From Spironucleus salmonicida (lineage: Eukaryota): a stretch of 20,000 nt of DNA. The position numbers and the translations under genes are program-made. Shown here piece by piece: positions 196 to 18,495 of the stretch. Under the pieces are notes generated by a model. It was not told the DNA's origin. It ran no database searches and saw only the letters and a program-made list of their open reading frames with translations. Within the stretch, counting starts at the first letter, position 1. Each line of letters starts with the position of its first letter. The stretch covers positions 176,828 through 196,827 of the forward strand of contig NC_090604.1 in assembly GCF_000497125.1 (NCBI RefSeq). The letters are read 5' to 3'.

Positions 196-1422
196 TCAGA
201 TCTCATTCCTCTGCACGAGGGGGAGCTCGGTGTGCATTCTCTGCTTCCTGCTGCGCACGGCGAAGGCCACGACACCGATGACCGCGGTCAGGGCGACGAC
301 ACCGCCGAGGACGGCACCGATGGTGGCGGCCTGGGAGGCTCTGTTGGCGGGCGCGACGCACTGGTGGGCCTGGAAGAGGTAGCCGGGTCTGCACGCGGCG
401 CAGTAGCGCTCGTCGCAGGACAGGCACCCCTCGGGGCAGGCGGCGCACTGGCCGGTGGTGGTCTGGCGGAAGCCGACCTCGCACTCGTTGCAGGAGTCGC
501 CGCTCTGGACCTTGCAGTTGGCGATGCCGCCGGGGACGACTGGTGGAGGCGTGGGAGGGTTCACCGAGCCGCAGGAGCTGGCGTCGGCACAGACCCCGGC
601 TGGGGTGAGGTAGAAGCCGAGCCCGCAACCGAGGCACTCGGAGGTGCTGCAGATGGCGCAGCCCTCGGCGCAGGGGACGCAGAGCCCGTTGGTGAGGGCG
701 TGACCGGGGTGGCACACGAGGCAGCCGTCGGCGCCCTCGATCTGACAGGAGTTGGGCTTGGGCACGCATACGTTGTCCTGGACGGCGAGGCCTTCCTTGC
801 ACACGACGCACTTTTCTTCGTACTGGAAGTCGCAGTTGGCGACGGCGGCGAAGCAGTTGCCGCCCTGCTGGACGAAGCCTGGGATGCAAGTGGTGCAGCC
901 GGAGGCATCGGAGGATGCGCAGAGGGAAGGGTTGGTGACGCAGGTGTTGTTCATGACGGCGAAGCCCTCGCGGCAGTTGACACACTTCTCCTCGTACTGG
1001 TAGTCGCAGTTCTTCACGCCGGCGTAGCAGTTGCCGTTGGTGTTGGAGTAGCCAGGCTTGCAGCTGATGCAGCCCTCGGGGGTGTTGGTCTCGCAGAAGG
1101 CGGGGTTGGTGACGCACTTGTTGCCGGCGTTGGCCATGCCGTCCTTGCACACGACGCACTTCTCCTCGTACTGGAACTCGCAGTTGGCGACAGCCGCGAA
1201 GCAGTTGCCGTCCTGTTCGACGTGGCCGGGCTTGCAGGTGGCGCAGCCGTCGATGCCCTGAACGGAGCAGAGGGCGGGGTTGGTGACGCACTTGTTGTCG
1301 GCGACGGCGAAGCCCTCGCGGCAGTTGATGCAGGTGGCCTCGTACTGGAACTCGCAGTTCTTGATGTTGGGGATGCAGGTGTTGTTCTCACGGTGGGTGT
1401 TGGTCGGGCAGGTCGCGCTCAT
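196..1422 (-). CDS. CXXC-rich (cysteine-rich) membrane protein, VSP/HCMP/CRMP-like, copy 1 (408 aa from MSATCP...)
   Basis: 15 CXXC motifs, four 58-aa Cys repeats, furin-like Cys modules, a Pro-rich hinge (PPTPPPVVP), a C-terminal hydrophobic helix (ATIGAVLGGVVALTAVIGVVAFAV) and a basic 19-aa tail (RSRKQR...NEI). Strong GC3 bias begins at the ATG at 1422. The ORF-track start at 1578 runs through promoter-like sequence and is less likely. Confidence 0.9.
   Translation of the reverse strand: MSATCPTNTHRENNTCIPNIKNCEFQYEATCINCREGFAVADNKCVTNPALCSVQGIDGCATCKPGHVEQDGNCFAAVANCEFQYEEKCVVCKDGMANAGNKCVTNPAFCETNTPEGCISCKPGYSNTNGNCYAGVKNCDYQYEEKCVNCREGFAVMNNTCVTNPSLCASSDASGCTTCIPGFVQQGGNCFAAVANCDFQYEEKCVVCKEGLAVQDNVCVPKPNSCQIEGADGCLVCHPGHALTNGLCVPCAEGCAICSTSECLGCGLGFYLTPAGVCADASSCGSVNPPTPPPVVPGGIANCKVQSGDSCNECEVGFRQTTTGQCAACPEGCLSCDERYCAACRPGYLFQAHQCVAPANRASQAATIGAVLGGVVALTAVIGVVAFAVRSRKQRMHTELPLVQRNEI
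679..1374 (-). repeat. Intragenic tandem repeat, 4 x 174 bp (58 aa, each made of two 29-aa CXXC modules), in an A-B-A-B pattern; present in every complete CDS copy
   Basis: IPNIKNCEFQYEATCINCREG...GNC / FAAVANCEFQYEEKCVVCKDG...GNC / YAGVKNCDYQYEEKCVNCREG...GNC / FAAVANCDFQYEEKCVVCKEG...GLC. Confidence 0.92.
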
Positions 1423-1468
1423 TGGTAGTGGAGTGGGCGGGTCGGATCGGGGGTATAATACGGTATTA
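1423..1468 (-). promoter_or_regulatory. Putative core promoter of the membrane-protein gene: TATA-like element, C-rich tract and palindrome (repeated in each unit)
   Basis: The minus strand reads TAATACCGTATTATACCCCCGATCCGACCCGCCCACTCCACTACCA-ATG. TATTATA lies about 32-38 nt upstream of the ATG and is followed by a C-rich tract. Function is inferred from position only. Confidence 0.4.
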
Positions 1469-1606
1469 GGCCGATAATCTATTTCGGGCCGAGTTAGAAT
1501 AGGTGGAGCGGAGTTGGATTGCCTTGGGTATCCGCGCCATCGTGCAGAATACCCGGCCGGGTGGAAGGGCGGACCCATCCCGAGGCGGGCGGTGCGCGAG
1601 AAAGAT

Positions 1607-1610
1607 AAAA
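1607..1610 (-). terminator. Pol III oligo-T terminator (TTTT) at the 5S 3' end; identical in all 14 copies
   Basis: Minus strand GCCGAA-TTTT-ATCTTT immediately after the 3' strand of helix I. Confidence 0.65.
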
Positions 1611-1726
1611 TTCGGCACAGCTCTTTCCCTCGTAGTCTCCCAGCGAAGTACTCAATACTGCCAGGTCAGGCTTCACTTCACAATTTGGAACAAGATGTGG
1701 TGTTTAACTGACTGTATGACCGAATC
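1607..1726 (-). rRNA. 5S rRNA (unit 1, copy a)
   Basis: Minus strand: GATTCGGTCATACAGTCAGTTAAACACCACATCTTGTTCCAAATTGTGAAGTGAAGCCTGACCTGGCAGTATTGAGTACTTCGCTGGGAGACTACGAGGGAAAGAGCTGTGCCGAATTTT (~120 nt). Folding by hand gives helix I ATTCGGT/GCCGAAT; helix II CAGTCAG/CTGAC(C)TG with a bulge; helix III CAC-CACA/TGTG-AA-GTG; helix V GCAGT/GCTGT; loop E AGTA/GAA; helix IV CTTCG(C)TGG-GAGA-CTACGAGG with a GNRA tetraloop; and a T4 Pol III terminator. Ends are uncertain by 1-2 nt. Confidence 0.93.
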
Positions 1727-1819
1727 GAGAGTACTGGGGCGTGGCCGCGGACCCGGGCGCTGGGCGGGTGCTGGGAAGCGGGCCCGCCCATCCCGAGGCG
1801 GGCGGTGCGCGAGAAAGAT

Positions 1820-1939
1820 AAAATTCGGCACAGCTCTTTCCCTCGTAGTCTCCCAGCGAAGTACTCAATACTGCCAGGTCAGGCTTCACTTCACAATTTG
1901 GAACAAGATGTGGTGTTTAACTGACTGTATGACCGAATC
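1820..1939 (-). rRNA. 5S rRNA (unit 1, copy b)
   Basis: Identical to 1607-1726. Confidence 0.93.
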
Positions 1940-2032
1940 GAGAGTACTGGGGCGTGGCCGCGGACCCGGGCGCTGGGCGGGTGCTGGGAAGCGGGCCCGC
2001 CCATCCCGAGGCGGGCGGTGCGCGAGAAAGAT

Positions 2033-2152
2033 AAAATTCGGCACAGCTCTTTCCCTCGTAGTCTCCCAGCGAAGCACTCAATACTGCCAGGTCAGGCTTC
2101 ACTTCACAATTTGGAACAAGATGTGGTGTTTAACTGACTGTATGACCGAATC
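2033..2152 (-). rRNA. 5S rRNA (unit 1, copy c; loop E variant AGUA>AGUG)
   Basis: As 1607-1726 except + strand T>C at 2075. Confidence 0.9.
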
Positions 2153-2584
2153 GAGAGTACTGGGACGGCCGGAAAGAAGGGGCGCCTCGCGCTGTTACTT
2201 TGCGACGCTTCCCGTGAGGCGCTAGCTCGAAGTGGGCCACGAGATGCTTCAGCTACCGCCCTGGGAAGCCAAGGTGAAAGTGCGTGGCTAAAGGTTGGGA
2301 CGTACCAAGCCACTACGAAGTGGGAGTGAGACAGCATACTTAGGGGAGGCGCTGTGAAGGCAGATGACGGAGAAGTGACGGCTGCCCTTTCTAGCGTTTG
2401 GTTAGCTTGGGTGCATAGCCTCTGCTGGTAGATTTTGTTATAGGTGCAGTTAGTAAAAGCTAATGCTAGGGCTAGGCAATTAATAGAATAAATACTGCCG
2501 AAACGTATAAATAAATCATTAGCATAGCTTATCAGCCAGCTAGAGTGGAGGGACGTGAGGGCGCTATAAATCAAGTAGGGTCAC

Positions 2585-3811
2585 TCAGATCTCATTCCTC
2601 TGCACGAGGGGGAGCTCGGTGTGCATTCTCTGCTTCCTGCTGCGCACGGCGAAGGCCACGACACCGATGACCGCGGTCAGGGCGACGACACCGCCGAGGA
2701 CGGCACCGATGGTGGCGGCCTGGGAGGCTCTGTTGGCGGGCGCGACGCACTGGTGGGCCTGGAAGAGGTAGCCGGGTCTGCACGCGGCGCAGTAGCGCTC
2801 GTCGCAGGACAGGCACCCCTCGGGGCAGGCGGCGCACTGGCCGGTGGTGGTCTGGCGGAAGCCGACCTCGCACTCGTTGCAGGAGTCGCCGCTCTGGACC
2901 TTGCAGTTGGCGATGCCGCCGGGGACGACTGGTGGAGGCGTGGGAGGGTTCACCGAGACGCAGGAGCTGGCGTCGGCACAGACCCCGGCTGGGGTGAGGT
3001 AGAAGCCGAGCCCGCAACCGAGGCACTCGGAGGTGCTGCAGATGGCGCAGCCCTCGGCGCAGGGGACGCAGAGCCCGTTGGTGAGGGCGTGACCGGGGTG
3101 GCACACGAGGCAGCCGTCGGCGCCCTCGATCTGGCAGGAGTTGGGCTTGGGCACGCATACGTTGTCCTGGACGGCGAGGCCTTCCTTGCACACGACGCAC
3201 TTTTCTTCGTACTGGAAGTCGCAGTTGGCGACGGCGGCGAAGCAGTTGCCGCCCTGCTGGACGAAGCCTGGGATGCAAGTGGTGCAGCCGGAGGCATCGG
3301 AGGATGCGCAGAGGGAAGGGTTGGTGACGCAGGTGTTGTTCATGACGGCGAAGCCCTCGCGGCAGTTGACACACTTCTCCTCGTACTGGAAGTCGCAGTT
3401 CTTCACGCCGGCGAAGCAGTTGCCGTTGGTGTTGGAGTAGCCAGGCTTGCAGCTGATGCAGCCCTCGGGGGTGTTGGTCTCGCAGAAGGCGGGGTTGGTG
3501 ACGCACTTGTTGCCGGCGTTGGCCATGCCGTCCTTGCACACGACGCACTTCTCCTCGTACTGGAACTCGCAGTTGGCGACAGCCGCGAAGCAGTTGCCGT
3601 CCTGTTCGACGTGGCCGGGCTTGCAGGTGGCGCAGCCGTCGATGCCCTGAACGGAGCAGAGGGCGGGGTTGGTGACGCACTTGTTGTCGGCGACGGCGAA
3701 GCCCTCGCGGCAGTTGATGCAGGTGGCCTCGTACTGGAACGCGCAGTTCTTGATGTTGGGGATGCAGGTGTTGTTCTCACGGTGGGTGTTGGTCGGGCAG
3801 GTCGCGCTCAT
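2585..3811 (-). CDS. CXXC-rich membrane protein, copy 2 (E>A, two Y>F and G>V substitutions)
   Basis: Intact 408-aa ORF near-identical to copy 1; contains NCAFQ, CFAGVKNCDFQ and SSCVSVN. Confidence 0.9.
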   Translation of the reverse strand: MSATCPTNTHRENNTCIPNIKNCAFQYEATCINCREGFAVADNKCVTNPALCSVQGIDGCATCKPGHVEQDGNCFAAVANCEFQYEEKCVVCKDGMANAGNKCVTNPAFCETNTPEGCISCKPGYSNTNGNCFAGVKNCDFQYEEKCVNCREGFAVMNNTCVTNPSLCASSDASGCTTCIPGFVQQGGNCFAAVANCDFQYEEKCVVCKEGLAVQDNVCVPKPNSCQIEGADGCLVCHPGHALTNGLCVPCAEGCAICSTSECLGCGLGFYLTPAGVCADASSCVSVNPPTPPPVVPGGIANCKVQSGDSCNECEVGFRQTTTGQCAACPEGCLSCDERYCAACRPGYLFQAHQCVAPANRASQAATIGAVLGGVVALTAVIGVVAFAVRSRKQRMHTELPLVQRNEI

Positions 3812-3995
3812 TGGTAGTGGAGTGGGCGGGTCGGATCGGGGGTATAATACGGTATTAGGCCGATAATCTATTTCGGGCCGAGTTAGAATAGGTGGAGCGG
3901 AGTTGGATTGCCTTGGGTATCCGCGCCATCGTGCAGAATACCCGGCCGGGTGGAAGGGCGGACCCATCCCGAGGCGGGCGGTGCGCGAGAAAGAT

Positions 3996-4115
3996 AAAAT
4001 TCGGCACAGCTCTTTCCCTCGTAGTCTCCCAGCGAAGTACTCAATACTGCCAGGTCAGGCTTCACTTCAAAATTTGGAACAAGATGTGGTGTTTAACTGA
4101 CTGTATGACCGAATC
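3996..4115 (-). rRNA. 5S rRNA (unit 2; helix III variant that creates an internal T4)
   Basis: As 1607-1726 except + strand C>A at 4070. Confidence 0.88.
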
Positions 4116-4547
4116 GAGAGTACTGGGACGGCCGGAAAGAAGGGGCGCCTCGCGCTGTTACTTTGCGACGCTTCCCGTGAGGCGCTAGCTCGAAGTGGGC
4201 CACGAGATGCTTCAGCTACCGCCCTGGGAAGCCAAGGTGAAAGTGCGTGGCTAAAGGTTGGGACGTACCAAGCCACTACGAAGTGGGAGTGAGACAGCAT
4301 ACTTAGGGGAGGCGCTGTGAAGGCAGATGACGGAGAAGTGACGGCTGCCCTTTCTAGCGTTTGGTTAGCTTGGGTGCATAGCCTCTGCTGGTAGATTTTG
4401 TTATAGGTGCAGTTAGTAAAAGCTAATGCTAGGGCTAGGCAATTAATAGAATAAATACTGCCGAAACGTATAAATAAATCATTAGCATAGCTTATCAGCC
4501 AGCTAGAGTGGAGGGACGTGAGGGCGCTATAAATCAAGTAGGGTCAC

Positions 4548-5774
4548 TCAGATCTCATTCCTCTGCACGAGGGGGAGCTCGGTGTGCATTCTCTGCTTCC
4601 TGCTGCGCACGGCGAAGGCCACGACACCGATGACCGCGGTCAGGGCGACGACACCGCCGAGGACGGCACCGATGGTGGCGGCCTGGGAGGCTCTGTTGGC
4701 GGGCGCGACGCACTGGTGGGCCTGGAAGAGGTAGCCGGGTCTGCACGCGGCGCAGTAGCGCTCGTCGCAGGACAGGCACCCCTCGGGGCAGGCGGCGCAC
4801 TGGCCGGTGGTGGTCTGGCGGAAGCCGACCTCGCACTCGTTGCAGGAGTCGCCGCTCTGGACCTTGCAGTTGGCGATGCCGCCGGGGACGACTGGTGGAG
4901 GCGTGGGAGGGTTCACCGAGCCGCAGGAGCTGGCGTCGGCACAGACCCCGGCTGGGGTGAGGTAGAAGCCGAGCCCGCAACCGAGGCACTCGGAGGTGCT
5001 GCAGATGGCGCAGCCCTCGGCGCAGGGGACGCAGAGCCCGTTGGTGAGGGCGTGACCGGGGTGGCACACGAGGCAGCCGTCGGCGCCCTCGATCTGGCAG
5101 GAGTTGGGCTTGGGCACGCATACGTTGTCCTGGACGGCGAGGCCTTCCTTGCACACGACGCACTTTTCTTCGTACTGGAAGTCGCAGTTGGCGACGGCGG
5201 CGAAGCAGTTGCCGCCCTGCTGGACGAAGCCTGGGATGCAAGTGGTGCAGCCGGAGGCATCGGAGGATGCGCAGAGGGAAGGGTTGGTGACGCAGGTGTT
5301 GTTCATGACGGCGAAGCCCTCGCGGCAGTTGACACACTTCTCCTCGTACTGGTAGTCGCAGTTCTTCACGCCGGCGTAGCAGTTGCCGTTGGTGTTGGAG
5401 TAGCCAGGCTTGCAGCTGATGCAGCCCTCGGGGGTGTTGGTCTCGCAGAAGGCGGGGTTGGTGACGCACTTGTTGCCGGCGTTGGCCATGCCGTCCTTGC
5501 ACACGACGCACTTCTCCTCGTACTGGAACTCGCAGTTGGCGACAGCCGCGAAGCAGTTGCCGTCCTGTTCGACGTGGCCGGGCTTGCAGGTGGCGCAGCC
5601 GTCGATGCCCTGAACGGAGCAGAGGGCGGGGTTGGTGACGCACTTGTTGTCGGCGACGGCGAAGCCCTCGCGGCAGTTGATGCAGGTGGCCTCGTACTGG
5701 AACTCGCAGTTCTTGATGTTGGGGATGCAGGTGTTGTTCTCACGGTGGGTGTTGGTCGGGCAGGTCGCGCTCAT
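4548..5774 (-). CDS. CXXC-rich membrane protein, copy 3
   Basis: Intact ORF, same protein as copy 1. Confidence 0.9.
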   Translation of the reverse strand: MSATCPTNTHRENNTCIPNIKNCEFQYEATCINCREGFAVADNKCVTNPALCSVQGIDGCATCKPGHVEQDGNCFAAVANCEFQYEEKCVVCKDGMANAGNKCVTNPAFCETNTPEGCISCKPGYSNTNGNCYAGVKNCDYQYEEKCVNCREGFAVMNNTCVTNPSLCASSDASGCTTCIPGFVQQGGNCFAAVANCDFQYEEKCVVCKEGLAVQDNVCVPKPNSCQIEGADGCLVCHPGHALTNGLCVPCAEGCAICSTSECLGCGLGFYLTPAGVCADASSCGSVNPPTPPPVVPGGIANCKVQSGDSCNECEVGFRQTTTGQCAACPEGCLSCDERYCAACRPGYLFQAHQCVAPANRASQAATIGAVLGGVVALTAVIGVVAFAVRSRKQRMHTELPLVQRNEI

Positions 5775-5958
5775 TGGTAGTGGAGTGGGCGGGTCGGATC
5801 GGGGGTATAATACGGTATTAGGCCGATAATCTATTTCGGGCCGAGTTAGAATAGGTGGAGCGGAGTTGGATTGCCTTGGGTATCCGCGCCATCGTGCAGA
5901 ATACCCGGCCGGGTGGAAGGGCGGACCCATCCCGAGGCGGGCGGTGCGCGAGAAAGAT

Positions 5959-6078
5959 AAAATTCGGCACAGCTCTTTCCCTCGTAGTCTCCCAGCGAAG
6001 TACTCAATACTGCCAGGTCAGGCTTCACTTCACAATTTGGAACAAGATGTGGTGTTTAACTGACTGTATGACCGAATC
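5959..6078 (-). rRNA. 5S rRNA (unit 3, copy a)
   Basis: Same sequence as 1607-1726. Confidence 0.93.
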
Positions 6079-6171
6079 GAGAGTACTGGGGCGTGGCCGC
6101 GGACCCGGGCGCTGGGCGGGTGCTGGGAAGCGGGCCCGCCCATCCCGAGGCGGGCGGTGCGCGAGAAAGAT

Positions 6172-6291
6172 AAAATTCGGCACAGCTCTTTCCCTCGTAG
6201 TCTCCCAGCGAAGTACTCAATACTGCCAGGTCAGGCTTCACTTCACAATTTGGAACAAGATGTGGTGTTTAACTGACTGTATGACCGAATC
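6172..6291 (-). rRNA. 5S rRNA (unit 3, copy b)
   Basis: Same sequence as 1607-1726, 213 bp from the previous copy. Confidence 0.93.
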
Positions 6292-6723
6292 GAGAGTACT
6301 GGGACGGCCGGAAAGAAGGGGCGCCTCGCGCTGTTACTTTGCGACGCTTCCCGTGAGGCGCTAGCTCGAAGTGGGCCACGAGATGCTTCAGCTACCGCCC
6401 TGGGAAGCCAAGGTGAAAGTGCGTGGCTAAAGGTTGGGACGTACCAAGCCACTACGAAGTGGGAGTGAGACAGCATACTTAGGGGAGGCGCTGTGAAGGC
6501 AGATGACGGAGAAGTGACGGCTGCCCTTTCTAGCGTTTGGTTAGCTTGGGTGCATAGCCTCTGCTGGTAGATTTTGTTATAGGTGCAGTTAGTAAAAGCT
6601 AATGCTAGGGCTAGGCAATTAATAGAATAAATACTGCCGAAACGTATAAATAAATCATTAGCATAGCTTATCAGCCAGCTAGAGTGGAGGGACGTGAGGG
6701 CGCTATAAATCAAGTAGGGTCAC

Positions 6724-7950
6724 TCAGATCTCATTCCTCTGCACGAGGGGGAGCTCGGTGTGCATTCTCTGCTTCCTGCTGCGCACGGCGAAGGCCACGA
6801 CACCGATGACCGCGGTCAGGGCGACGACACCGCCGAGGACGGCACCGATGGTGGCGGCCTGGGAGGCTCTGTTGGCGGGCGCGACGCACTGGTGGGCCTG
6901 GAAGAGGTAGCCGGGTCTGCACGCGGCGCAGTAGCGCTCGTCGCAGGACAGGCACCCCTCGGGGCAGGCGGCGCACTGGCCGGTGGTGGTCTGGCGGAAG
7001 CCGACCTCGCACTCGTTGCAGGAGTCGCCGCTCTGGACCTTGCAGTTGGCGATGCCGCCGGGGACGACTGGTGGAGGCGTGGGAGGGTTCACCGAGCCGC
7101 AGGAGCTGGCGTCGGCACAGACCCCGGCTGGGGTGAGGTAGAAGCCGAGCCCGCAACCGAGGCACTCGGAGGTGCTGCAGATGGCGCAGCCCTCGGCGCA
7201 GGGGACGCAGAGCCCGTTGGTGAGGGCGTGACCGGGGTGGCACACGAGGCAGCCGTCGGCGCCCTCGATCTGACAGGAGTTGGGCTTGGGCACGCATACG
7301 TTGTCCTGGACGGCGAGGCCTTCCTTGCACACGACGCACTTTTCTTCGTACTGGAAGTCGCAGTTGGCGACGGCGGCGAAGCAGTTGCCGCCCTGCTGGA
7401 CGAAGCCTGGGATGCAAGTGGTGCAGCCGGAGGCATCGGAGGATGCGCAGAGGGAAGGGTTGGTGACGCAGGTGTTGTTCATGACGGCGAAGCCCTCGCG
7501 GCAGTTGACACACTTCTCCTCGTACTGGTAGTCGCAGTTCTTCACGCCGGCGTAGCAGTTGCCGTTGGTGTTGGAGTAGCCAGGCTTGCAGCTGATGCAG
7601 CCCTCGGGGGTGTTGGTCTCGCAGAAGGCGGGGTTGGTGACGCACTTGTTGCCGGCGTTGGCCATGCCGTCCTTGCACACGACGCACTTCTCCTCGTACT
7701 GGAACTCGCAGTTGGCGACAGCCGCGAAGCAGTTGCCGTCCTGTTCGACGTGGCCGGGCTTGCAGGTGGCGCAGCCGTCGATGCCCTGAACGGAGCAGAG
7801 GGCGGGGTTGGTGACGCACTTGTTGTCGGCGACGGCGAAGCCCTCGCGGCAGTTGATGCAGGTGGCCTCGTACTGGAACTCGCAGTTCTTGATGTTGGGG
7901 ATGCAGGTGTTGTTCTCACGGTGGGTGTTGGTCGGGCAGGTCGCGCTCAT
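6724..7950 (-). CDS. CXXC-rich membrane protein, copy 4
   Basis: Intact ORF, same protein as copy 1. Confidence 0.9.
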   Translation of the reverse strand: MSATCPTNTHRENNTCIPNIKNCEFQYEATCINCREGFAVADNKCVTNPALCSVQGIDGCATCKPGHVEQDGNCFAAVANCEFQYEEKCVVCKDGMANAGNKCVTNPAFCETNTPEGCISCKPGYSNTNGNCYAGVKNCDYQYEEKCVNCREGFAVMNNTCVTNPSLCASSDASGCTTCIPGFVQQGGNCFAAVANCDFQYEEKCVVCKEGLAVQDNVCVPKPNSCQIEGADGCLVCHPGHALTNGLCVPCAEGCAICSTSECLGCGLGFYLTPAGVCADASSCGSVNPPTPPPVVPGGIANCKVQSGDSCNECEVGFRQTTTGQCAACPEGCLSCDERYCAACRPGYLFQAHQCVAPANRASQAATIGAVLGGVVALTAVIGVVAFAVRSRKQRMHTELPLVQRNEI

Positions 7951-8134
7951 TGGTAGTGGAGTGGGCGGGTCGGATCGGGGGTATAATACGGTATTAGGCC
8001 GATAATCTATTTCGGGCCGAGTTAGAATAGGTGGAGCGGAGTTGGATTGCCTTGGGTATCCGCGCCATCGTGCAGAATACCCGGCCGGGTGGAAGGGCGG
8101 ACCCATCCCGAGGCGGGCGGTGCGCGAGAAAGAT

Positions 8135-8899: not shown

Positions 8900-10126
8900 T
8901 CAGATCTCATTCCTCTGCACGAGGGGGAGCTCGGTGTGCATTCTCTGCTTCCTGCTGCGCACGGCGAAGGCCACGACACCGATGACCGCGGTCAGGGCGA
9001 CGACACCGCCGAGGACGGCACCGATGGTGGCGGCCTGGGAGGCTCTGTTGGCGGGCGCGACGCACTGGTGGGCCTGGAAGAGGTAGCCGGGTCTGCACGC
9101 GGCGCAGTAGCGCTCGTCGCAGGACAGGCACCCCTCGGGGCAGGCGGCGCACTGGCCGGTGGTGGTCTGGCGGAAGCCGACCTCGCACTCGTTGCAGGAG
9201 TCGCCGCTCTGGACCTTGCAGTTGGCGATGCCGCCGGGGACGACTGGTGGAGGCGTGGGAGGGTTCACCGAGCCGCAGGAGCTGGCGTCGGCACAGACCC
9301 CGGCTGGGGTGAGGTAGAAGCCGAGCCCGCAACCGAGGCACTCGGAGGTGCTGCAGATGGCGCAGCCCTCGGCGCAGGGGACGCAGAGCCCGTTGGTGAG
9401 GGCGTGACCGGGGTGGCACACGAGGCAGCCGTCGGCGCCCTCGATCTGGCAGGAGTTGGGCTTGGGCACGCATACGTTGTCCTGGACGGCGAGGCCTTCC
9501 TTGCACACGACGCACTTTTCTTCGTACTGGAAGTCGCAGTTGGCGACGGCGGCGAAGCAGTTGCCGCCCTGCTGGACGAAGCCTGGGATGCAAGTGGTGC
9601 AGCCGGAGGCATCGGAGGATGCGCAGAGGGAAGGGTTGGTGACGCAGGTGTTGTTCATGACGGCGAAGCCCTCGCGGCAGTTGACACACTTCTCCTCGTA
9701 CTGGTAGTCGCAGTTCTTCACGCCGGCGTAGCAGTTGCCGTTGGTGTTGGAGTAGCCAGGCTTGCAGCTGATGCAGCCCTCGGGGGTGTTGGTCTCGCAG
9801 AAGGCGGGGTTGGTGACGCACTTGTTGCCGGCGTTGGCCATGCCGTCCTTGCACACGACGCACTTCTCCTCGTACTGGAACTCGCAGTTGGCGACAGCCG
9901 CGAAGCAGTTGCCGTCCTGTTCGACGTGGCCGGGCTTGCAGGTGGCGCAGCCGTCGATGCCCTGAACGGAGCAGAGGGCGGGGTTGGTGACGCACTTGTT
10001 GTCGGCGACGGCGAAGCCCTCGCGGCAGTTGATGCAGGTGGCCTCGTACTGGAACTCGCAGTTCTTGATGTTGGGGATGCAGGTGTTGTTCTCACGGTGG
10101 GTGTTGGTCGGGCAGGTCGCGCTCAT
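8900..10126 (-). CDS. CXXC-rich membrane protein, copy 5
   Basis: Intact ORF, same protein as copy 1. Confidence 0.9.
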   Translation of the reverse strand: MSATCPTNTHRENNTCIPNIKNCEFQYEATCINCREGFAVADNKCVTNPALCSVQGIDGCATCKPGHVEQDGNCFAAVANCEFQYEEKCVVCKDGMANAGNKCVTNPAFCETNTPEGCISCKPGYSNTNGNCYAGVKNCDYQYEEKCVNCREGFAVMNNTCVTNPSLCASSDASGCTTCIPGFVQQGGNCFAAVANCDFQYEEKCVVCKEGLAVQDNVCVPKPNSCQIEGADGCLVCHPGHALTNGLCVPCAEGCAICSTSECLGCGLGFYLTPAGVCADASSCGSVNPPTPPPVVPGGIANCKVQSGDSCNECEVGFRQTTTGQCAACPEGCLSCDERYCAACRPGYLFQAHQCVAPANRASQAATIGAVLGGVVALTAVIGVVAFAVRSRKQRMHTELPLVQRNEI

Positions 10127-10643: not shown

Positions 10644-11075
10644 GAGAGTACTGGGACGGCCGGAAAGAAGGGGCGCCTCGCGCTGTTACTTTGCGACGCT
10701 TCCCGTGAGGCGCTAGCTCGAAGTGGGCCACGAGATGCTTCAGCTACCGCCCTGGGAAGCCAAGGTGAAAGTGCGTGGCTAAAGGTTGGGACGTACCAAG
10801 CCACTACGAAGTGGGAGTGAGACAGCATACTTAGGGGAGGCGCTGTGAAGGCAGATGACGGAGAAGTGACGGCTGCCCTTTCTAGCGTTTGGTTAGCTTG
10901 GGTGCATAGCCTCTGCTGGTAGATTTTGTTATAGGTGCAGTTAGTAAAAGCTAATGCTAGGGCTAGGCAATTAATAGAATAAATACTGCCGAAACGTATA
11001 AATAAATCATTAGCATAGCTTATCAGCCAGCTAGAGTGGAGGGACGTGAGGGCGCTATAAATCAAGTAGGGTCAC

Positions 11076-12302
11076 TCAGATCTCATTCCTCTGCACGAGG
11101 GGGAGCTCGGTGTGCATTCTCTGCTTCCTGCTGCGCACGGCGAAGGCCACGACACCGATGACCGCGGTCAGGGCGACGACACCGCCGAGGACGGCACCGA
11201 TGGTGGCGGCCTGGGAGGCTCTGTTGGCGGGCGCGACGCACTGGTGGGCCTGGAAGAGGTAGCCGGGTCTGCACGCGGCGCAGTAGCGCTCGTCGCAGGA
11301 CAGGCACCCCTCGGGGCAGGCGGCGCACTGGCCGGTGGTGGTCTGGCGGAAGCCGACCTCGCACTCGTTGCAGGAGTCGCCGCTCTGGACCTTGCAGTTG
11401 GCGATGCCGCCGGGGACGACTGGTGGAGGCGTGGGAGGGTTCACCGAGCCGCAGGAGCTGGCGTCGGCACAGACCCCGGCTGGGGTGAGGTAGAAGCCGA
11501 GCCCGCAACCGAGGCACTCGGAGGTGCTGCAGATGGCGCAGCCCTCGGCGCAGGGGACGCAGAGCCCGTTGGTGAGGGCGTGACCGGGGTGGCACACGAG
11601 GCAGCCGTCGGCGCCCTCGATCTGACAGGAGTTGGGCTTGGGCACGCATACGTTGTCCTGGACGGCGAGGCCTTCCTTGCACACGACGCACTTTTCTTCG
11701 TACTGGAAGTCGCAGTTGGCGACGGCGGCGAAGCAGTTGCCGCCCTGCTGGACGAAGCCTGGGATGCAAGTGGTGCAGCCGGAGGCATCGGAGGATGCGC
11801 AGAGGGAAGGGTTGGTGACGCAGGTGTTGTTCATGACGGCGAAGCCCTCGCGGCAGTTGACACACTTCTCCTCGTACTGGTAGTCGCAGTTCTTCACGCC
11901 GGCGTAGCAGTTGCCGTTGGTGTTGGAGTAGCCAGGCTTGCAGCTGATGCAGCCCTCGGGGGTGTTGGTCTCGCAGAAGGCGGGGTTGGTGACGCACTTG
12001 TTGCCGGCGTTGGCCATGCCGTCCTTGCACACGACGCACTTCTCCTCGTACTGGAACTCGCAGTTGGCGACAGCCGCGAAGCAGTTGCCGTCCTGTTCGA
12101 CGTGGCCGGGCTTGCAGGTGGCGCAGCCGTCGATGCCCTGAACGGAGCAGAGGGCGGGGTTGGTGACGCACTTGTTGTCGGCGACGGCGAAGCCCTCGCG
12201 GCAGTTGATGCAGGTGGCCTCGTACTGGAACTCGCAGTTCTTGATGTTGGGGATGCAGGTGTTGTTCTCACGGTGGGTGTTGGTCGGGCAGGTCGCGCTC
12301 AT
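11076..12302 (-). CDS. CXXC-rich membrane protein, copy 6
   Basis: Intact ORF, same protein as copy 1. Confidence 0.9.
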   Translation of the reverse strand: MSATCPTNTHRENNTCIPNIKNCEFQYEATCINCREGFAVADNKCVTNPALCSVQGIDGCATCKPGHVEQDGNCFAAVANCEFQYEEKCVVCKDGMANAGNKCVTNPAFCETNTPEGCISCKPGYSNTNGNCYAGVKNCDYQYEEKCVNCREGFAVMNNTCVTNPSLCASSDASGCTTCIPGFVQQGGNCFAAVANCDFQYEEKCVVCKEGLAVQDNVCVPKPNSCQIEGADGCLVCHPGHALTNGLCVPCAEGCAICSTSECLGCGLGFYLTPAGVCADASSCGSVNPPTPPPVVPGGIANCKVQSGDSCNECEVGFRQTTTGQCAACPEGCLSCDERYCAACRPGYLFQAHQCVAPANRASQAATIGAVLGGVVALTAVIGVVAFAVRSRKQRMHTELPLVQRNEI

Positions 12303-12486
12303 TGGTAGTGGAGTGGGCGGGTCGGATCGGGGGTATAATACGGTATTAGGCCGATAATCTATTTCGGGCCGAGTTAGAATAGGTGGAGCGGAGTTGGATT
12401 GCCTTGGGTATCCGCGCCATCGTGCAGAATACCCGGCCGGGTGGAAGGGCGGACCCATCCCGAGGCGGGCGGTGCGCGAGAAAGAT

Positions 12487-12606
12487 AAAATTCGGCACAG
12501 CTCTTTCCCTCGTAGTCTCCCAGCGAAGTACTCAATACTGCCAGGTCAGGCTTCACTTCACAATTTGGAACAAGATGTGGTGTTTAACTGACTGTATGAC
12601 CGAATC
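12487..12606 (-). rRNA. 5S rRNA (unit 6)
   Basis: Same sequence as 1607-1726. Confidence 0.93.
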
Positions 12607-13038
12607 GAGAGTACTGGGACGGCCGGAAAGAAGGGGCGCCTCGCGCTGTTACTTTGCGACGCTTCCCGTGAGGCGCTAGCTCGAAGTGGGCCACGAGATG
12701 CTTCAGCTACCGCCCTGGGAAGCCAAGGTGAAAGTGCGTGGCTAAAGGTTGGGACGTACCAAGCCACTACGAAGTGGGAGTGAGACAGCATACTTAGGGG
12801 AGGCGCTGTGAAGGCAGATGACGGAGAAGTGACGGCTGCCCTTTCTAGCGTTTGGTTAGCTTGGGTGCATAGCCTCTGCTGGTAGATTTTGTTATAGGTG
12901 CAGTTAGTAAAAGCTAATGCTAGGGCTAGGCAATTAATAGAATAAATACTGCCGAAACGTATAAATAAATCATTAGCATAGCTTATCAGCCAGCTAGAGT
13001 GGAGGGACGTGAGGGCGCTATAAATCAAGTAGGGTCAC

Positions 13039-14265
13039 TCAGATCTCATTCCTCTGCACGAGGGGGAGCTCGGTGTGCATTCTCTGCTTCCTGCTGCGCA
13101 CGGCGAAGGCCACGACACCGATGACCGCGGTCAGGGCGACGACACCGCCGAGGACGGCACCGATGGTGGCGGCCTGGGAGGCTCTGTTGGCGGGCGCGAC
13201 GCACTGGTGGGCCTGGAAGAGGTAGCCGGGTCTGCACGCGGCGCAGTAGCGCTCGTCGCAGGACAGGCACCCCTCGGGGCAGGCGGCGCACTGGCCGGTG
13301 GTGGTCTGGCGGAAGCCGACCTCGCACTCGTTGCAGGAGTCGCCGCTCTGGACCTTGCAGTTGGCGATGCCGCCGGGGACGACTGGTGGAGGCGTGGGAG
13401 GGTTCACCGAGCCGCAGGAGCTGGCGTCGGCACAGACCCCGGCTGGGGTGAGGTAGAAGCCGAGCCCGCAACCGAGGCACTCGGAGGTGCTGCAGATGGC
13501 GCAGCCCTCGGCGCAGGGGACGCAGAGCCCGTTGGTGAGGGCGTGACCGGGGTGGCACACGAGGCAGCCGTCGGCGCCCTCGATCTGACAGGAGTTGGGC
13601 TTGGGCACGCATACGTTGTCCTGGACGGCGAGGCCTTCCTTGCACACGACGCACTTTTCTTCGTACTGGAAGTCGCAGTTGGCGACGGCGGCGAAGCAGT
13701 TGCCGCCCTGCTGGACGAAGCCTGGGATGCAAGTGGTGCAGCCGGAGGCATCGGAGGATGCGCAGAGGGAAGGGTTGGTGACGCAGGTGTTGTTCATGAC
13801 GGCGAAGCCCTCGCGGCAGTTGACACACTTCTCCTCGTACTGGTAGTCGCAGTTCTTCACGCCGGCGTAGCAGTTGCCGTTGGTGTTGGAGTAGCCAGGC
13901 TTGCAGCTGATGCAGCCCTCGGGGGTGTTGGTCTCGCAGAAGGCGGGGTTGGTGACGCACTTGTTGCCGGCGTTGGCCATGCCGTCCTTGCACACGACGC
14001 ACTTCTCCTCGTACTGGAACTCGCAGTTGGCGACAGCCGCGAAGCAGTTGCCGTCCTGTTCGACGTGGCCGGGCTTGCAGGTGGCGCAGCCGTCGATGCC
14101 CTGAACGGAGCAGAGGGCGGGGTTGGTGACGCACTTGTTGTCGGCGACGGCGAAGCCCTCGCGGCAGTTGATGCAGGTGGCCTCGTACTGGAACTCGCAG
14201 TTCTTGATGTTGGGGATGCAGGTGTTGTTCTCACGGTGGGTGTTGGTCGGGCAGGTCGCGCTCAT
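13039..14265 (-). CDS. CXXC-rich membrane protein, copy 7
   Basis: Intact ORF, same protein as copy 1. Confidence 0.9.
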   Translation of the reverse strand: MSATCPTNTHRENNTCIPNIKNCEFQYEATCINCREGFAVADNKCVTNPALCSVQGIDGCATCKPGHVEQDGNCFAAVANCEFQYEEKCVVCKDGMANAGNKCVTNPAFCETNTPEGCISCKPGYSNTNGNCYAGVKNCDYQYEEKCVNCREGFAVMNNTCVTNPSLCASSDASGCTTCIPGFVQQGGNCFAAVANCDFQYEEKCVVCKEGLAVQDNVCVPKPNSCQIEGADGCLVCHPGHALTNGLCVPCAEGCAICSTSECLGCGLGFYLTPAGVCADASSCGSVNPPTPPPVVPGGIANCKVQSGDSCNECEVGFRQTTTGQCAACPEGCLSCDERYCAACRPGYLFQAHQCVAPANRASQAATIGAVLGGVVALTAVIGVVAFAVRSRKQRMHTELPLVQRNEI

Positions 14266-14449
14266 TGGTAGTGGAGTGGGCGGGTCGGATCGGGGGTATA
14301 ATACGGTATTAGGCCGATAATCTATTTCGGGCCGAGTTAGAATAGGTGGAGCGGAGTTGGATTGCCTTGGGTATCCGCGCCATCGTGCAGAATACCCGGC
14401 CGGGTGGAAGGGCGGACCCATCCCGAGGCGGGCGGTGCGCGAGAAAGAT

Positions 14450-14569
14450 AAAATTCGGCACAGCTCTTTCCCTCGTAGTCTCCCAGCGAAGTACTCAATA
14501 CTGCCAGGTCAGGCTTCACTTCACAATTTGGAACAAGATGTGGTGTTTAACTGACTGTATGACCGAATC
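14450..14569 (-). rRNA. 5S rRNA (unit 7)
   Basis: Same sequence as 1607-1726. Confidence 0.93.
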
Positions 14570-15001
14570 GAGAGTACTGGGACGGCCGGAAAGAAGGGGC
14601 GCCTCGCGCTGTTACTTTGCGACGCTTCCCGTGAGGCGCTAGCTCGAAGTGGGCCACGAGATGCTTCAGCTACCGCCCTGGGAAGCCAAGGTGAAAGTGC
14701 GTGGCTAAAGGTTGGGACGTACCAAGCCACTACGAAGTGGGAGTGAGACAGCATACTTAGGGGAGGCGCTGTGAAGGCAGATGACGGAGAAGTGACGGCT
14801 GCCCTTTCTAGCGTTTGGTTAGCTTGGGTGCATAGCCTCTGCTGGTAGATTTTGTTATAGGTGCAGTTAGTAAAAGCTAATGCTAGGGCTAGGCAATTAA
14901 TAGAATAAATACTGCCGAAACGTATAAATAAATCATTAGCATAGCTTATCAGCCAGCTAGAGTGGAGGGACGTGAGGGCGCTATAAATCAAGTAGGGTCA
15001 C

Positions 15002-16228
15002 TCAGATCTCATTCCTCTGCACGAGGGGGAGCTCGGTGTGCATTCTCTGCTTCCTGCTGCGCACGGCGAAGGCCACGACACCGATGACCGCGGTCAGGGC
15101 GACGACACCGCCGAGGACGGCACCGATGGTGGCGGCCTGGGAGGCTCTGTTGGCGGGCGCGACGCACTGGTGGGCCTGGAAGAGGTAGCCGGGTCTGCAC
15201 GCGGCGCAGTAGCGCTCGTCGCAGGACAGGCACCCCTCGGGGCAGGCGGCGCACTGGCCGGTGGTGGTCTGGCGGAAGCCGACCTCGCACTCGTTGCAGG
15301 AGTCGCCGCTCTGGACCTTGCAGTTGGCGATGCCGCCGGGGACGACTGGTGGAGGCGTGGGAGGGTTCACCGAGCCGCAGGAGCTGGCGTCGGCACAGAC
15401 CCCGGCTGGGGTGAGGTAGAAGCCGAGCCCGCAACCGAGGCACTCGGAGGTGCTGCAGATGGCGCAGCCCTCGGCGCAGGGGACGCAGAGCCCGTTGGTG
15501 AGGGCGTGACCGGGGTGGCACACGAGGCAGCCGTCGGCGCCCTCGATCTGACAGGAGTTGGGCTTGGGCACGCATACGTTGTCCTGGACGGCGAGGCCTT
15601 CCTTGCACACGACGCACTTTTCTTCGTACTGGAAGTCGCAGTTGGCGACGGCGGCGAAGCAGTTGCCGCCCTGCTGGACGAAGCCTGGGATGCAAGTGGT
15701 GCAGCCGGAGGCATCGGAGGATGCGCAGAGGGAAGGGTTGGTGACGCAGGTGTTGTTCATGACGGCGAAGCCCTCGCGGCAGTTGACACACTTCTCCTCG
15801 TACTGGAAGTCGCAGTTCTTCACGCCGGCGTAGCAGTTGCCGTTGGTGTTGGAGTAGCCAGGCTTGCAGCTGATGCAGCCCTCGGGGGTGTTGGTCTCGC
15901 AGAAGGCGGGGTTGGTGACGCACTTGTTGCCGGCGTTGGCCATGCCGTCCTTGCACACGACGCACTTCTCCTCGTACTGGAACTCGCAGTTGGCGACAGC
16001 CGCGAAGCAGTTGCCGTCCTGTTCGACGTGGCCGGGCTTGCAGGTGGCGCAGCCGTCGATGCCCTGAACGGAGCAGAGGGCGGGGTTGGTGACGCACTTG
16101 TTGTCGGCGACGGCGAAGCCCTCGCGGCAGTTGACACACTTCTCCTCGTACTGGTAGTCGCAGTTCTTGATGTTGGGGATGCAGGTGTTGTTCTCGCGGT
16201 GGGTGTTGGTCGGGCAGGTCGCGCTCAT
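15002..16228 (-). CDS. CXXC-rich membrane protein, copy 8 (mosaic; repeat 1 patched with repeat-3 sequence)
   Basis: Intact ORF; repeat 1 reads NCDYQYEEKCVNC instead of NCEFQYEATCINC, and repeat 3 reads CDFQ. Confidence 0.9.
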   Translation of the reverse strand: MSATCPTNTHRENNTCIPNIKNCDYQYEEKCVNCREGFAVADNKCVTNPALCSVQGIDGCATCKPGHVEQDGNCFAAVANCEFQYEEKCVVCKDGMANAGNKCVTNPAFCETNTPEGCISCKPGYSNTNGNCYAGVKNCDFQYEEKCVNCREGFAVMNNTCVTNPSLCASSDASGCTTCIPGFVQQGGNCFAAVANCDFQYEEKCVVCKEGLAVQDNVCVPKPNSCQIEGADGCLVCHPGHALTNGLCVPCAEGCAICSTSECLGCGLGFYLTPAGVCADASSCGSVNPPTPPPVVPGGIANCKVQSGDSCNECEVGFRQTTTGQCAACPEGCLSCDERYCAACRPGYLFQAHQCVAPANRASQAATIGAVLGGVVALTAVIGVVAFAVRSRKQRMHTELPLVQRNEI

Positions 16229-16412
16229 TGGTAGTGGAGTGGGCGGGTCGGATCGGGGGTATAATACGGTATTAGGCCGATAATCTATTTCGGGCCGAGT
16301 TAGAATAGGTGGAGCGGAGTTGGATTGCCTTGGGTATCCGCGCCATCGTGCAGAATACCCGGCCGGGTGGAAGGGCGGACCCATCCCGAGGCGGGCGGTG
16401 CGCGAGAAAGAT

Positions 16413-16532
16413 AAAATTCGGCACAGCTCTTTCCCTCGTAGTCTCCCAGCGAAGTACTCAATACTGCCAGGTCAGGCTTCACTTCACAATTTGGAACAAG
16501 ATGTGGTGTTTAACTGACTGTATGACCGAATC
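16413..16532 (-). rRNA. 5S rRNA (unit 8)
   Basis: Same sequence as 1607-1726. Confidence 0.93.
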
Positions 16533-16964
16533 GAGAGTACTGGGACGGCCGGAAAGAAGGGGCGCCTCGCGCTGTTACTTTGCGACGCTTCCCGTGAGGC
16601 GCTAGCTCGAAGTGGGCCACGAGATGCTTCAGCTACCGCCCTGGGAAGCCAAGGTGAACGTGCGTGGCTAAAGGTTGGGACGTACCAAGCCACTACGAAG
16701 TGGGAGTGAGACAGCATACTTAGGGGAGGCGCTGTGAAGGCAGATGACGGAGAAGTGACGGCTGCCCTTTCTAGCGTTTGGTTAGCTTGGGTGCATAGCC
16801 TCTGCTGGTAGATTTTGTTATAGGTGCAGTTAGTAAAAGCTAATGCTAGGGCTAGGCAATTAATAGAATAAATACTGCCGAAACGTATAAATAAATCATT
16901 AGCATAGCTTATCAGCCAGCTAGAGTGGAGGGACGTGAGGGCGCTATAAATCAAGTAGGGTCAC

Positions 16965-18191
16965 TCAGATCTCATTCCTCTGCACGAGGGGGAGCTCGGT
17001 GTGCATTCTCTGCTTCCTGCTGCGCACGGCGAAGGCCACGACACCGATGACCGCGGTCAGGGCGACGACACCGCCGAGGACGGCACCGATGGTGGCGGCC
17101 TGGGAGGCTCTGTTGGCGGGCGCGACGCACTGGTGGGCCTGGAAGAGGTAGCCGGGTCTGCACGCGGCGCAGTAGCGCTCGTCGCAGGACAGGCACCCCT
17201 CGGGGCAGGCGGCGCACTGGCCGGTGGTGGTCTGGCGGAAGCCGACCTCGCACTCGTTGCAGGAGTCGCCGCTCTGGACCTTGCAGTTGGCGATGCCGCC
17301 GGGGACGACTGGTGGAGGCGTGGGAGGGTTCACCGAGCCGCAGGAGCTGGCGTCGGCACAGACCCCGGCTGGGGTGAGGTAGAAGCCGAGCCCGCAACCG
17401 AGGCACTCGGAGGTGCTGCAGATGGCGCAGCCCTCGGCGCAGGGGACGCAGAGCCCGTTGGTGAGGGCGTGACCGGGGTGGCACACGAGGCAGCCGTCGG
17501 CGCCCTCGATCTGACAGGAGTTGGGCTTGGGCACGCATACGTTGTCCTGGACGGCGAGGCCTTCCTTGCACACGACGCACTTTTCTTCGTACTGGAAGTC
17601 GCAGTTGGCGACGGCGGCGAAGCAGTTGCCGCCCTGCTGGACGAAGCCTGGGATGCAAGTGGTGCAGCCGGAGGCATCGGAGGATGCGCAGAGGGAAGGG
17701 TTGGTGACGCAGGTGTTGTTCATGACGGCGAAGCCCTCGCGGCAGTTGACACACTTCTCCTCGTACTGGTAGTCGCAGTTCTTCACGCCGGCGTAGCAGT
17801 TGCCGTTGGTGTTGGAGTAGCCAGGCTTGCAGCTGATGCAGCCCTCGGGGGTGTTGGTCTCGCAGAAGGCGGGGTTGGTGACGCACTTGTTGCCGGCGTT
17901 GGCCATGCCGTCCTTGCACACGACGCACTTCTCCTCGTACTGGAACTCGCAGTTGGCGACAGCCGCGAAGCAGTTGCCGTCCTGTTCGACGTGGCCGGGC
18001 TTGCAGGTGGCGCAGCCGTCGATGCCCTGAACGGAGCAGAGGGCGGGGTTGGTGACGCACTTGTTGTCGGCGACGGCGAAGCCCTCGCGGCAGTTGATGC
18101 AGGTGGCCTCGTACTGGAACTCGCAGTTCTTGATGTTGGGGATGCAGGTGTTGTTCTCGCGGTGGGTGTTGGTCGGGCAGGTCGCGCTCAT
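16965..18191 (-). CDS. CXXC-rich membrane protein, copy 9
   Basis: Intact ORF, same protein as copy 1. Confidence 0.9.
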   Translation of the reverse strand: MSATCPTNTHRENNTCIPNIKNCEFQYEATCINCREGFAVADNKCVTNPALCSVQGIDGCATCKPGHVEQDGNCFAAVANCEFQYEEKCVVCKDGMANAGNKCVTNPAFCETNTPEGCISCKPGYSNTNGNCYAGVKNCDYQYEEKCVNCREGFAVMNNTCVTNPSLCASSDASGCTTCIPGFVQQGGNCFAAVANCDFQYEEKCVVCKEGLAVQDNVCVPKPNSCQIEGADGCLVCHPGHALTNGLCVPCAEGCAICSTSECLGCGLGFYLTPAGVCADASSCGSVNPPTPPPVVPGGIANCKVQSGDSCNECEVGFRQTTTGQCAACPEGCLSCDERYCAACRPGYLFQAHQCVAPANRASQAATIGAVLGGVVALTAVIGVVAFAVRSRKQRMHTELPLVQRNEI

Positions 18192-18375
18192 TGGTAGTGG
18201 AGTGGGCGGGTCGGATCGGGGGTATAATACGGTATTAGGCCGATAATCTATTTCGGGCCGAGTTAGAATAGGTGGAGCGGAGTTGGATTGCCTTGGGTAT
18301 CCGCGCCATCGTGCAGAATACCCGGCCGGGTGGAAGGGCGGACCCATCCCGAGGCGGGCGGTGCGCGAGAAAGAT

Positions 18376-18495
18376 AAAATTCGGCACAGCTCTTTCCCTC
18401 GTAGTCTCCCAGCGAAGTACTCAATACTGCCAGGTCAGGCTTCACTTCACAATTTGGAACAAGATGTGGTGTTTAACTGACTGTATGACCGAATC
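18376..18495 (-). rRNA. 5S rRNA (unit 9)
   Basis: Same sequence as 1607-1726. Confidence 0.93.

Follow-up and report, generated by a model that had tools for sequence, protein, structure and literature searches.

A tandem array in Spironucleus salmonicida in which 5S rRNA genes alternate with a gene for a predicted cysteine-rich membrane protein

Known 5S linkages and the locus studied

The genes that share a repeat unit with 5S ribosomal RNA (rRNA) genes are usually housekeeping ones, for example those of 45S ribosomal DNA (rDNA), spliced-leader RNA, histones and small nuclear RNAs. The linkage of 5S genes with further multigene families, for example the histone genes and the trans-spliced leader, is established (PMC10946416, citing Drouin and de Sa 1995). 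In this study, a stretch of 20,000 nucleotides (nt) of Spironucleus salmonicida DNA (assembly GCF_000497125.1, contig NC_090604.1, positions 176,828 to 196,827 of the forward strand; referred to as the window and numbered from its first letter) was analysed. It contains 5S rRNA genes that alternate with copies of a gene for a cysteine-rich, predicted membrane protein. The arrangement resembles the known 5S linkages in having a co-oriented second gene in the 5S tandem unit and in the homogenisation of both together. It differs from them in the partner, which is a putative RNA polymerase II (Pol II) gene for a lineage-specific cysteine-rich membrane protein and not one for a housekeeping RNA or a histone. 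We consider it likely that the window is part of a composite diplomonad 5S rDNA array in which the protein gene has been amplified and homogenised along with the 5S genes.

Forty 5S genes of S. salmonicida have been reported in one tandem array on chromosome 9; the same chromosome carries a 64-kb tandem repeat with a period of about 2 kb and is enriched in cysteine-rich membrane protein genes (PMC9509377). Duplicated regions of this genome were described as GC-rich, and its assembly was made from PacBio RS II reads (PMC9509377); GC-rich segments of the genome hold genes with very high GC content at synonymous third codon positions (GC3s) (PMC1805757). Tandem 5S genes, a period of about 2 kb, a GC-rich duplication, cysteine-rich genes and a long-read assembly are thus common to the window and the chromosome 9 locus (PMC9509377). 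At the ratio seen in the window, 14 5S genes to about 9.5 units, 40 5S genes correspond to about 27 units and about 57 kb, near the published 64 kb, and the homopolymer indels of the last unit of the window (see below) fit the PacBio RS II technology. We infer that the window is most likely the published chromosome 9 locus, the match being one of description.

In the available text of that report, the 5S array and the 64-kb repeat are treated separately and no protein gene within each unit is mentioned (PMC9509377). The same report describes an array of histone H4 and reverse transcriptase genes on chromosome 3, which likewise brings together a housekeeping gene sensitive to dosage and a gene that is not related to it but has other partners and contains no RNA polymerase III (Pol III) gene (PMC9509377). 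No description of 5S genes in one unit with a gene for a cysteine-rich membrane protein came up in a literature search; the interleaving may already be visible in the figures or supplements of PMC9509377 or in the public annotation. The initial annotation, which was made from the letters of the stretch alone, had proposed the linkage as new. This has to be narrowed, as the 5S array and the 2-kb repeat were already published (PMC9509377); the locus is public, and what appears undiscussed in print, as far as the available text goes, is the linkage of the 5S genes to the protein gene.

Composition and homogeneity of the repeat unit

The whole window was searched on both strands with cmscan against Rfam at gathering thresholds. 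All 14 matches were to RF00001, the 5S rRNA family, and all were on the minus strand; each covered model positions 1-120 and none was cut off. Scores were 66.8 bits for 12 copies and 62.2 and 61.2 bits for the remaining two (gathering score, 38), with E-values from 2.2e-12 to 6.6e-11. Twelve of the 14 copies were identical, and those at 2033-2153 and 3996-4116 were one base off each. The 14 matches coincide with the repeats that the initial annotation had read as 5S genes with the usual helices, a GAGA loop and a T4 terminator, and the match predicted on the minus strand of 1607-1726 was obtained at 1607-1727 with 66.8 bits. The Rfam alignment includes the closing helix (helix I), the two arms, the loop GAGA and, at the 3' end, a terminal TTTT. 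The gene is 121 nt long including the TTTT and has a GC content of 46%. Its minimum-free-energy fold is a three-way junction (Y shape) of ordinary energy (z -0.89; 32 of 200 shuffles were equally stable); therefore, the covariance model and not the fold energy is the evidence for 5S identity. Scans of metagenomes with exact and with degenerate 5S patterns gave 0 matches each.

The 5S genes form nine clusters with copy numbers of 3, 1, 2, 2, 2, 1, 1, 1 and 1, and one open reading frame (ORF) encoding a CXXC-rich protein follows each cluster in the same orientation, which confirms the interleaving described initially. Nine of the 14 5S genes are directly upstream of an ORF and the other five precede another 5S gene. 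The array spans the entire window and continues past both ends. The 5S genes, all on the minus strand, are as follows.

1607..1727, minus strand: 5S rRNA gene, cluster 1, proximal to the ORF; RF00001 66.8 bits, model positions 1-120; equals the consensus
1820..1940, minus strand: 5S rRNA gene, cluster 1, middle; RF00001 66.8 bits
2033..2153, minus strand: 5S rRNA gene, cluster 1, upstream; one base off, at position 79; RF00001 62.2 bits
3996..4116, minus strand: 5S rRNA gene, cluster 2; one base off, at position 47; RF00001 61.2 bits
5959..6079, minus strand: 5S rRNA gene, cluster 3; RF00001 66.8 bits
6172..6292, minus strand: 5S rRNA gene, cluster 3; RF00001 66.8 bits
8135..8255, minus strand: 5S rRNA gene, cluster 4; RF00001 66.8 bits
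8348..8468, minus strand: 5S rRNA gene, cluster 4; RF00001 66.8 bits
10311..10431, minus strand: 5S rRNA gene, cluster 5; RF00001 66.8 bits
10524..10644, minus strand: 5S rRNA gene, cluster 5; RF00001 66.8 bits
12487..12607, minus strand: 5S rRNA gene, cluster 6; RF00001 66.8 bits
14450..14570, minus strand: 5S rRNA gene, cluster 7; RF00001 66.8 bits
16413..16533, minus strand: 5S rRNA gene, cluster 8; RF00001 66.8 bits
18376..18496, minus strand: 5S rRNA gene, cluster 9; RF00001 66.8 bits

Read along the minus strand, one unit consists of a 5S gene of 121 nt, a spacer of 184 nt, a frame of 408 codons plus TGA, and a spacer of 431 nt. The unit is 1963 bp long and is extended by 213 bp for each extra 5S gene (the 121-nt gene and a 92-nt spacer). 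The 5S gene and the cysteine-rich gene thus recur head to tail in one and the same unit, which is what characterises a composite 5S rDNA repeat. The three spacers are given here for the first unit.

1423..1606, minus strand: 5S-to-ATG spacer, 184 nt, a candidate Pol II promoter with TATTATA and a C-rich tract
1728..1819, minus strand: 5S-to-5S spacer, 92 nt, 76% GC, part of the 213-bp sub-repeat
2154..2584, minus strand: spacer from the stop codon to the next 5S gene, 431 nt, 52% GC; nothing recognised in a permissive Rfam search

The permissive Rfam search, run on one unit, returned the 5S gene only, with no second small RNA gene in the 431-nt spacer. The 92-nt spacer begins with 33 nt that also open the 5S-to-ORF spacer, and it finishes with 11 nt that are also found as the upstream flank of the first 5S gene; only its two ends are common to it and the gene-bearing spacer. 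This pattern suggests two kinds of repeat side by side in one array, a short and pure 5S repeat of 213 bp and the composite unit of 1963 bp. Either a 213-bp 5S repeat may have received a gene-bearing segment of 1.75 kb in its spacer, or the reverse may have taken place.

In units 2-9, the eight complete ones, the segments between 5S genes are all 1842 nt long. They contain 17 variable sites in 1842 aligned positions, with a mean pairwise identity of 99.73% and a minimum of 99.29%, and the homogenisation claimed in the initial annotation is therefore upheld. Such uniformity fits concerted evolution and recent amplification of a shared unit alike. Base composition is uneven inside the 2-kb unit: the GC content at third codon positions (GC3) of the protein gene is 0.92, compared with overall GC contents of 46% in the 5S gene and 52% in the 431-nt spacer.

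Contigs of four independent sequencing runs were compared with one circularly permuted unit (window:3200-5162). In run X1, the kind of which is guessed to be DNA, a short-read contig of 1984 nt covered the whole unit and closed on itself after 1963 bp. Such closure needs adjacent units; thus, the tandem order does not come from the assembly alone. In runs X5 and X6, both guessed to be RNA, contigs joined the 5S gene to the ORF across the 184-nt spacer. The contigs of X1, X5 and X6 carry the letters of the array consensus where units 2 and 3 deviate from it.

The protein gene and its product

Nine minus-strand ORFs of 460 codons were found, together with a tenth that continues past the end of the window. 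The nine complete ORFs are all intact and differ from the consensus by 0 to 10 bases each. Of the ten gene copies counted in the initial annotation, nine are therefore intact, and the tenth is partial and frameshifted as assembled. In the following list, coordinates refer to the 408-codon frame and differences to the 460-codon ORF.

196..1422, minus strand: gene for the predicted cysteine-rich membrane protein, copy 1; ATG at 1422, 408 codons, TGA stop
2585..3811, minus strand: cysteine-rich gene, copy 2; 5 base differences from the consensus
4548..5774, minus strand: cysteine-rich gene, copy 3; 1 difference
6724..7950, minus strand: cysteine-rich gene, copy 4; 0 differences
8900..10126, minus strand: cysteine-rich gene, copy 5; 1 difference
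11076..12302, minus strand: cysteine-rich gene, copy 6; 0 differences
13039..14265, minus strand: cysteine-rich gene, copy 7; 0 differences
15002..16228, minus strand: cysteine-rich gene, copy 8; 10 differences, including a 9-change patch from an internal repeat
16965..18191, minus strand: cysteine-rich gene, copy 9; 1 difference
18926..20000, minus strand: cysteine-rich gene, copy 10; truncated at the end of the window, with frameshifts in the assembled sequence; translation P0002

The first ATG of the long ORF (1578 in copy 1) is only 28 nt behind the 5S gene. GC3 is 0.48 in codons 1-52 and 0.92 in codons 53-460, and a public protein record begins at Met53 of the 460-codon ORF (ATG at 1422). 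The ATG at 1578 is probably not the start that is used. Upstream of the ATG at 1422, the sequence TATTATA begins at 38 nt and a C-rich tract extends from -23 to -8, with 11-mers containing 8 C starting at -23, -19 and -18. Promoters of S. salmonicida were described as having a TATA box between -60 and -20 and, near -10, a C-rich motif of 11 nt (PMC3916229); the architecture of the spacer matches this published layout. TGA was reported as the sole stop codon of the organism, with an AGTGA signal at the stop and poly(A) addition about 14 bp further on (PMC3916229). The corresponding element of copy 1 is as follows.

189..198, minus strand: TGA stop followed by GTGA, making AGTGA; candidate polyadenylation signal

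Judged by these sequence features, namely the jump of GC3 at the ATG, the TATA-like box, the C-rich tract and AGTGA, the gene looks functional. A scan for promoters and terminators of the bacterial type is uninformative for a eukaryote. The uneven GC content also yields long spurious ORFs in other frames, for example one of 398 codons on the plus strand; it was rejected as a rival gene because its GC content peaks at codon position 1 (0.92), making it a mirror of the true frame.

Two of the copies deserve separate description. Copy 8 carries 9 substitutions within 23 nt (16107-16129, near codons 76-84 of the 460-codon ORF), which make its first 29-residue repeat identical to the fifth repeat over that stretch. 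The patch comprises nine of the 17 variable sites among the units, and it indicates a putative intragenic conversion between internal repeats. Unit 10 (18497-20000) has 7 single-base indels, all in homopolymer runs, with 4 of them in the spacer and 3, all deletions, within the ORF; no length difference occurs in units 1-9. This looks like a consensus-polishing boundary of the long-read assembly rather than a decayed copy, and a real pseudogene is possible.

The 408-residue protein contains 51 cysteines (12.5%), with 15 CXXC and no CXC motifs. A cysteine spacing of 11-7-8-3 is repeated eight times, forming a 29-residue repeat, and the C-terminal part consists of a further CXXC-rich region, a hydrophobic helix and a tail of 19 residues. 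Hydropathy peaks at 2.6 over residues 419-441 of the 460-residue ORF. An AlphaFold2 model based on a 31-sequence alignment had a mean pLDDT of 80.6 and displayed beta-hairpins in series and, at residues 361-390 of the 408-residue protein, a C-terminal helix. Foldseek gave local matches of low TM only (best E, 1.2e-4; TM, <=0.17 on the query), and these were to the EGF arrays of LRP2, Fu1-Fu2 of R-spondin and the cysteine-rich region of IGF1R. The predicted product would span the membrane once, with the disulfide-rich rod lying outside it.

In homology searches, HMMER detected, among 1.84 billion representatives, 252 proteins with E<=1e-3, of which 8 reached E<=1e-30. With the window's own product set aside, the best relatives were about 30-33% identical and were mostly very long cysteine-rich proteins. 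Clusters of 30 relatives were looked up; they included a 'surface protein' of Tetrahymena thermophila and proteins of Angomonas deanei, Entamoeba dispar and E. invadens, and two metagenome clusters had proprotein-convertase labels. No match was obtained at E<=0.01 in a sequence search of the PDB. The top result of the Atlas feature search was a Fornicata cluster named 'Cysteine-rich membrane protein 1' (0.89; 172 shared features), which is a lead only.

The protein shares many CXXC motifs, a cysteine content above 10%, a single C-terminal helix and a short tail with S. salmonicida's cysteine-rich membrane proteins (CRMPs) and with the HCMP and VSP families of Giardia. The initial annotation had called it VSP-like, and in the sense of a family this is unsupported: no Pfam family, including VSP (PF03302), was matched at E<=1, no CRGKA or GGCY was found by regular expression, and neither a signal peptide nor a hydrophobic N-terminus is apparent, so that it differs from the Giardia VSPs. 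It also lacks all three features given for the surface proteins of Giardia muris, which were described with GGCY, signal peptides and VSP-type tails (PMC7641422). The same expression search found no [KR][KR]X[KR][KR], the tail starting with RSRKQR and the C-terminus reading ...QRNEI, and the absence of this motif after the membrane helix sets the protein apart from CRMP-1. The definition of CRMP-2 asks for at least three motifs of the form CXXC or CXC and for a membrane domain at the C-terminus, with motifs of the KKXKK type absent (PMC3916229). The predicted protein fits this operational definition. CRMPs of S. salmonicida were reported to be without signal peptides (PMC3916229), and none is recognised here either. 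The cysteine-rich proteins of this organism were also reported to be most similar to Tetrahymena proteins and to lack CRGKA and GGCY (PMC1805757); likewise, the nearest named relative found here is the Tetrahymena surface protein.

Explanations for the array

In the composite 5S rDNA array that we favour, each unit would have one to three 5S genes transcribed by Pol III and each ending in TTTT. A separate gene, transcribed by Pol II from a TATA-like box and a C-rich tract of its own, would follow 184 nt past the 5S gene, its frame of 408 codons ending in a TGA that overlaps the polyadenylation-type signal AGTGA, with the 431-nt spacer behind it. Its product would be a rod of eight disulfide-rich hairpin repeats of 29 residues, followed by the CXXC region, the membrane helix and the 19-residue tail. 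Since the 5S repeat unit encloses the protein gene, both would be amplified and homogenised together by gene conversion and unequal crossing-over, and crossing-over in the 213-bp sub-repeat would alter the number of 5S genes per unit and not the number of protein genes. Frequent GC-biased conversion may be the cause of the extreme GC3. Such a mechanism is ordinary for tandem arrays; it is the partner gene that is unusual. If 40 5S genes in one array is valid for the window locus, 5S dosage alone must keep the array. Hitchhiking of the protein gene on the 5S genes, and a coupling of its dosage or chromatin state to ribosome biogenesis, as the initial annotation proposed, are conjectural.

Several observations weigh against the composite array with a functional gene. 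The window has a GC content of 60%, which is extreme compared with the 33.5% published for the S. salmonicida genome. Over the first 90 residues, hydropathy in 19-residue stretches does not exceed 0.43, and since no signal peptide was found, export to the surface is unsupported. Word-indexed protein searches with the whole protein and with residues 290-460 returned only the window's own frameshifted P0002, and the name Spironucleus, or that of any diplomonad, occurred in none of the 30 clusters of relatives looked up. The triplet before the ATG is CCA, compared with AAA in 85 of 125 CRMP-1 genes (PMC3916229). Substitutions between copies are few, 4 non-synonymous and 2 synonymous, and dN/dS between the internal repeats is about 1 (0.37 to 2.8); purifying selection is visible in neither comparison. 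Nine sequencing runs contain the unit, and none of them is recorded as RNA. A piece of 39 nt within the 5S gene (4059-4097) had a depth of 1217 in run X1, compared with a mean of 74.9 for the unit contig.

Some of these points would suit a different origin. We regard it as very improbable that the ORF is a relic without function or protein product, a fragment of a cysteine-rich gene that was taken up into the 5S spacer and is open only owing to recent homogenisation and the few stops of GC-rich DNA; the missing signal peptide and Pfam family, a best relative only about 32% identical, the lack of synonymous bias, the long frames opened elsewhere by GC-rich DNA (the 398-codon plus-strand ORF) and the runs without an RNA record all agree with it. 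A relic would, however, have to account for nine intact copies out of nine complete ones, for a strict 29-residue cysteine framework kept eight times, for a change of GC3 from 0.48 to 0.92 exactly at an ATG preceded by TATA-like and C-rich elements, and for a poly(A)-type motif at the stop. The 398-codon ORF mirrors the real frame, the AlphaFold2 model is confident (pLDDT 80.6), and missing signal peptides are the norm for the class in S. salmonicida (PMC3916229). It is also conceivable, but in our opinion unlikely, that the protein gene is the selected cargo, amplified for dosage in the manner of surface-antigen arrays, with the 5S genes as passengers and the main 5S supply maybe elsewhere. 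Many arrays of cysteine-rich membrane protein genes are known in S. salmonicida, and the chromosome in question is enriched in such genes (PMC9509377); the C-rich tract near -10 is similar to a motif linked with high expression (PMC3916229), and the depth of the X1 piece could mean 5S copies outside the units. These have to be set against the 40 annotated 5S genes in the chromosome 9 tandem array, which leave no separate supply (PMC9509377), against 5S copies that are full-length and identical in 12 of 14 cases, and against a 5S number that varies, as it would where a 5S array is active, by means of a 213-bp sub-repeat dedicated to it.

That the array, or its length, is an artefact produced by a long-read assembler over-expanding a unit of one or few copies is hardly credible. 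The 7 homopolymer indels of unit 10, typical of an unpolished long-read consensus and absent from units 1-9, would be in keeping with it, as would contig depths that lack a single-copy reference for the copy number. On the other hand, the short-read contig of another run closes after exactly 1963 bp and so demands at least two adjacent units, the presence of shared and private variants and of varying 5S numbers is unlike simple over-expansion, and at the published locus the long-read pile-up and coverage agreed with those of neighbouring regions (PMC9509377).

A stronger form of the composite 5S rDNA array holds that this is the only 5S rDNA array, that it doubles as an expression or dosage platform for one cysteine-rich membrane protein, the output of which tracks the number of 5S genes, and that GC-biased conversion drives the GC3. 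We think this quite unlikely. If true, the contigs joining 5S gene, spacer and ORF would reflect read-through or shared open chromatin, and recombination among 5S genes would have led to a GC3 of 0.92 in an AT-rich genome, giving a mechanism for its unexplained GC-rich islands. If all genomic 5S genes are in the array, the copy number and sequence uniformity of the protein would be tied to an essential ribosomal gene. The cysteine-rich membrane protein class has been proposed to serve as variable surface antigens in this fish parasite. With all 5S genes in the array, about 30 identical copies would then set this protein apart as an atypical member, one that does not vary, in a family whose supposed role is variation. 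The array would also be a clean natural case for recombination-driven, GC-biased conversion behind GC-rich islands of high GC3, and Pol III and Pol II genes 184 nt apart and many times repeated offer a setting in which to study polymerase interference.

Further observations were made on contigs of the other runs. In X5, pieces of the 5S gene had depths of 950-1698 compared with 60 for the ORF contig, and one piece enters an Illumina adapter. High 5S depth, in X5 as in X1, possibly reflects abundant 5S RNA in the libraries, extra 5S copies elsewhere or an effect of depth averaging; contig depths cannot rank genes and were not used as evidence. The contigs of X5 and X6 leave about 4124-4520, the spacer behind the stop, uncovered, and that of X5 ends 9 nt past the stop; these ends were not used to place a transcript end. 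At 4166, which is 50 nt upstream of the 5S gene of cluster 2 (3996-4116), an X6 contig departs from the window and continues with 23 foreign letters, which occur nowhere in the window even with 3 mismatches. The departure could be an edge of the array, another 5S context or a chimeric contig. Run X9, which is labelled as another organism and comprises 1309 million letters, yielded two contigs of 151 nt identical to the ORF (4617-4767 and 4846-4996) with a depth of 2; the source organism was probably present at trace level in that sample.

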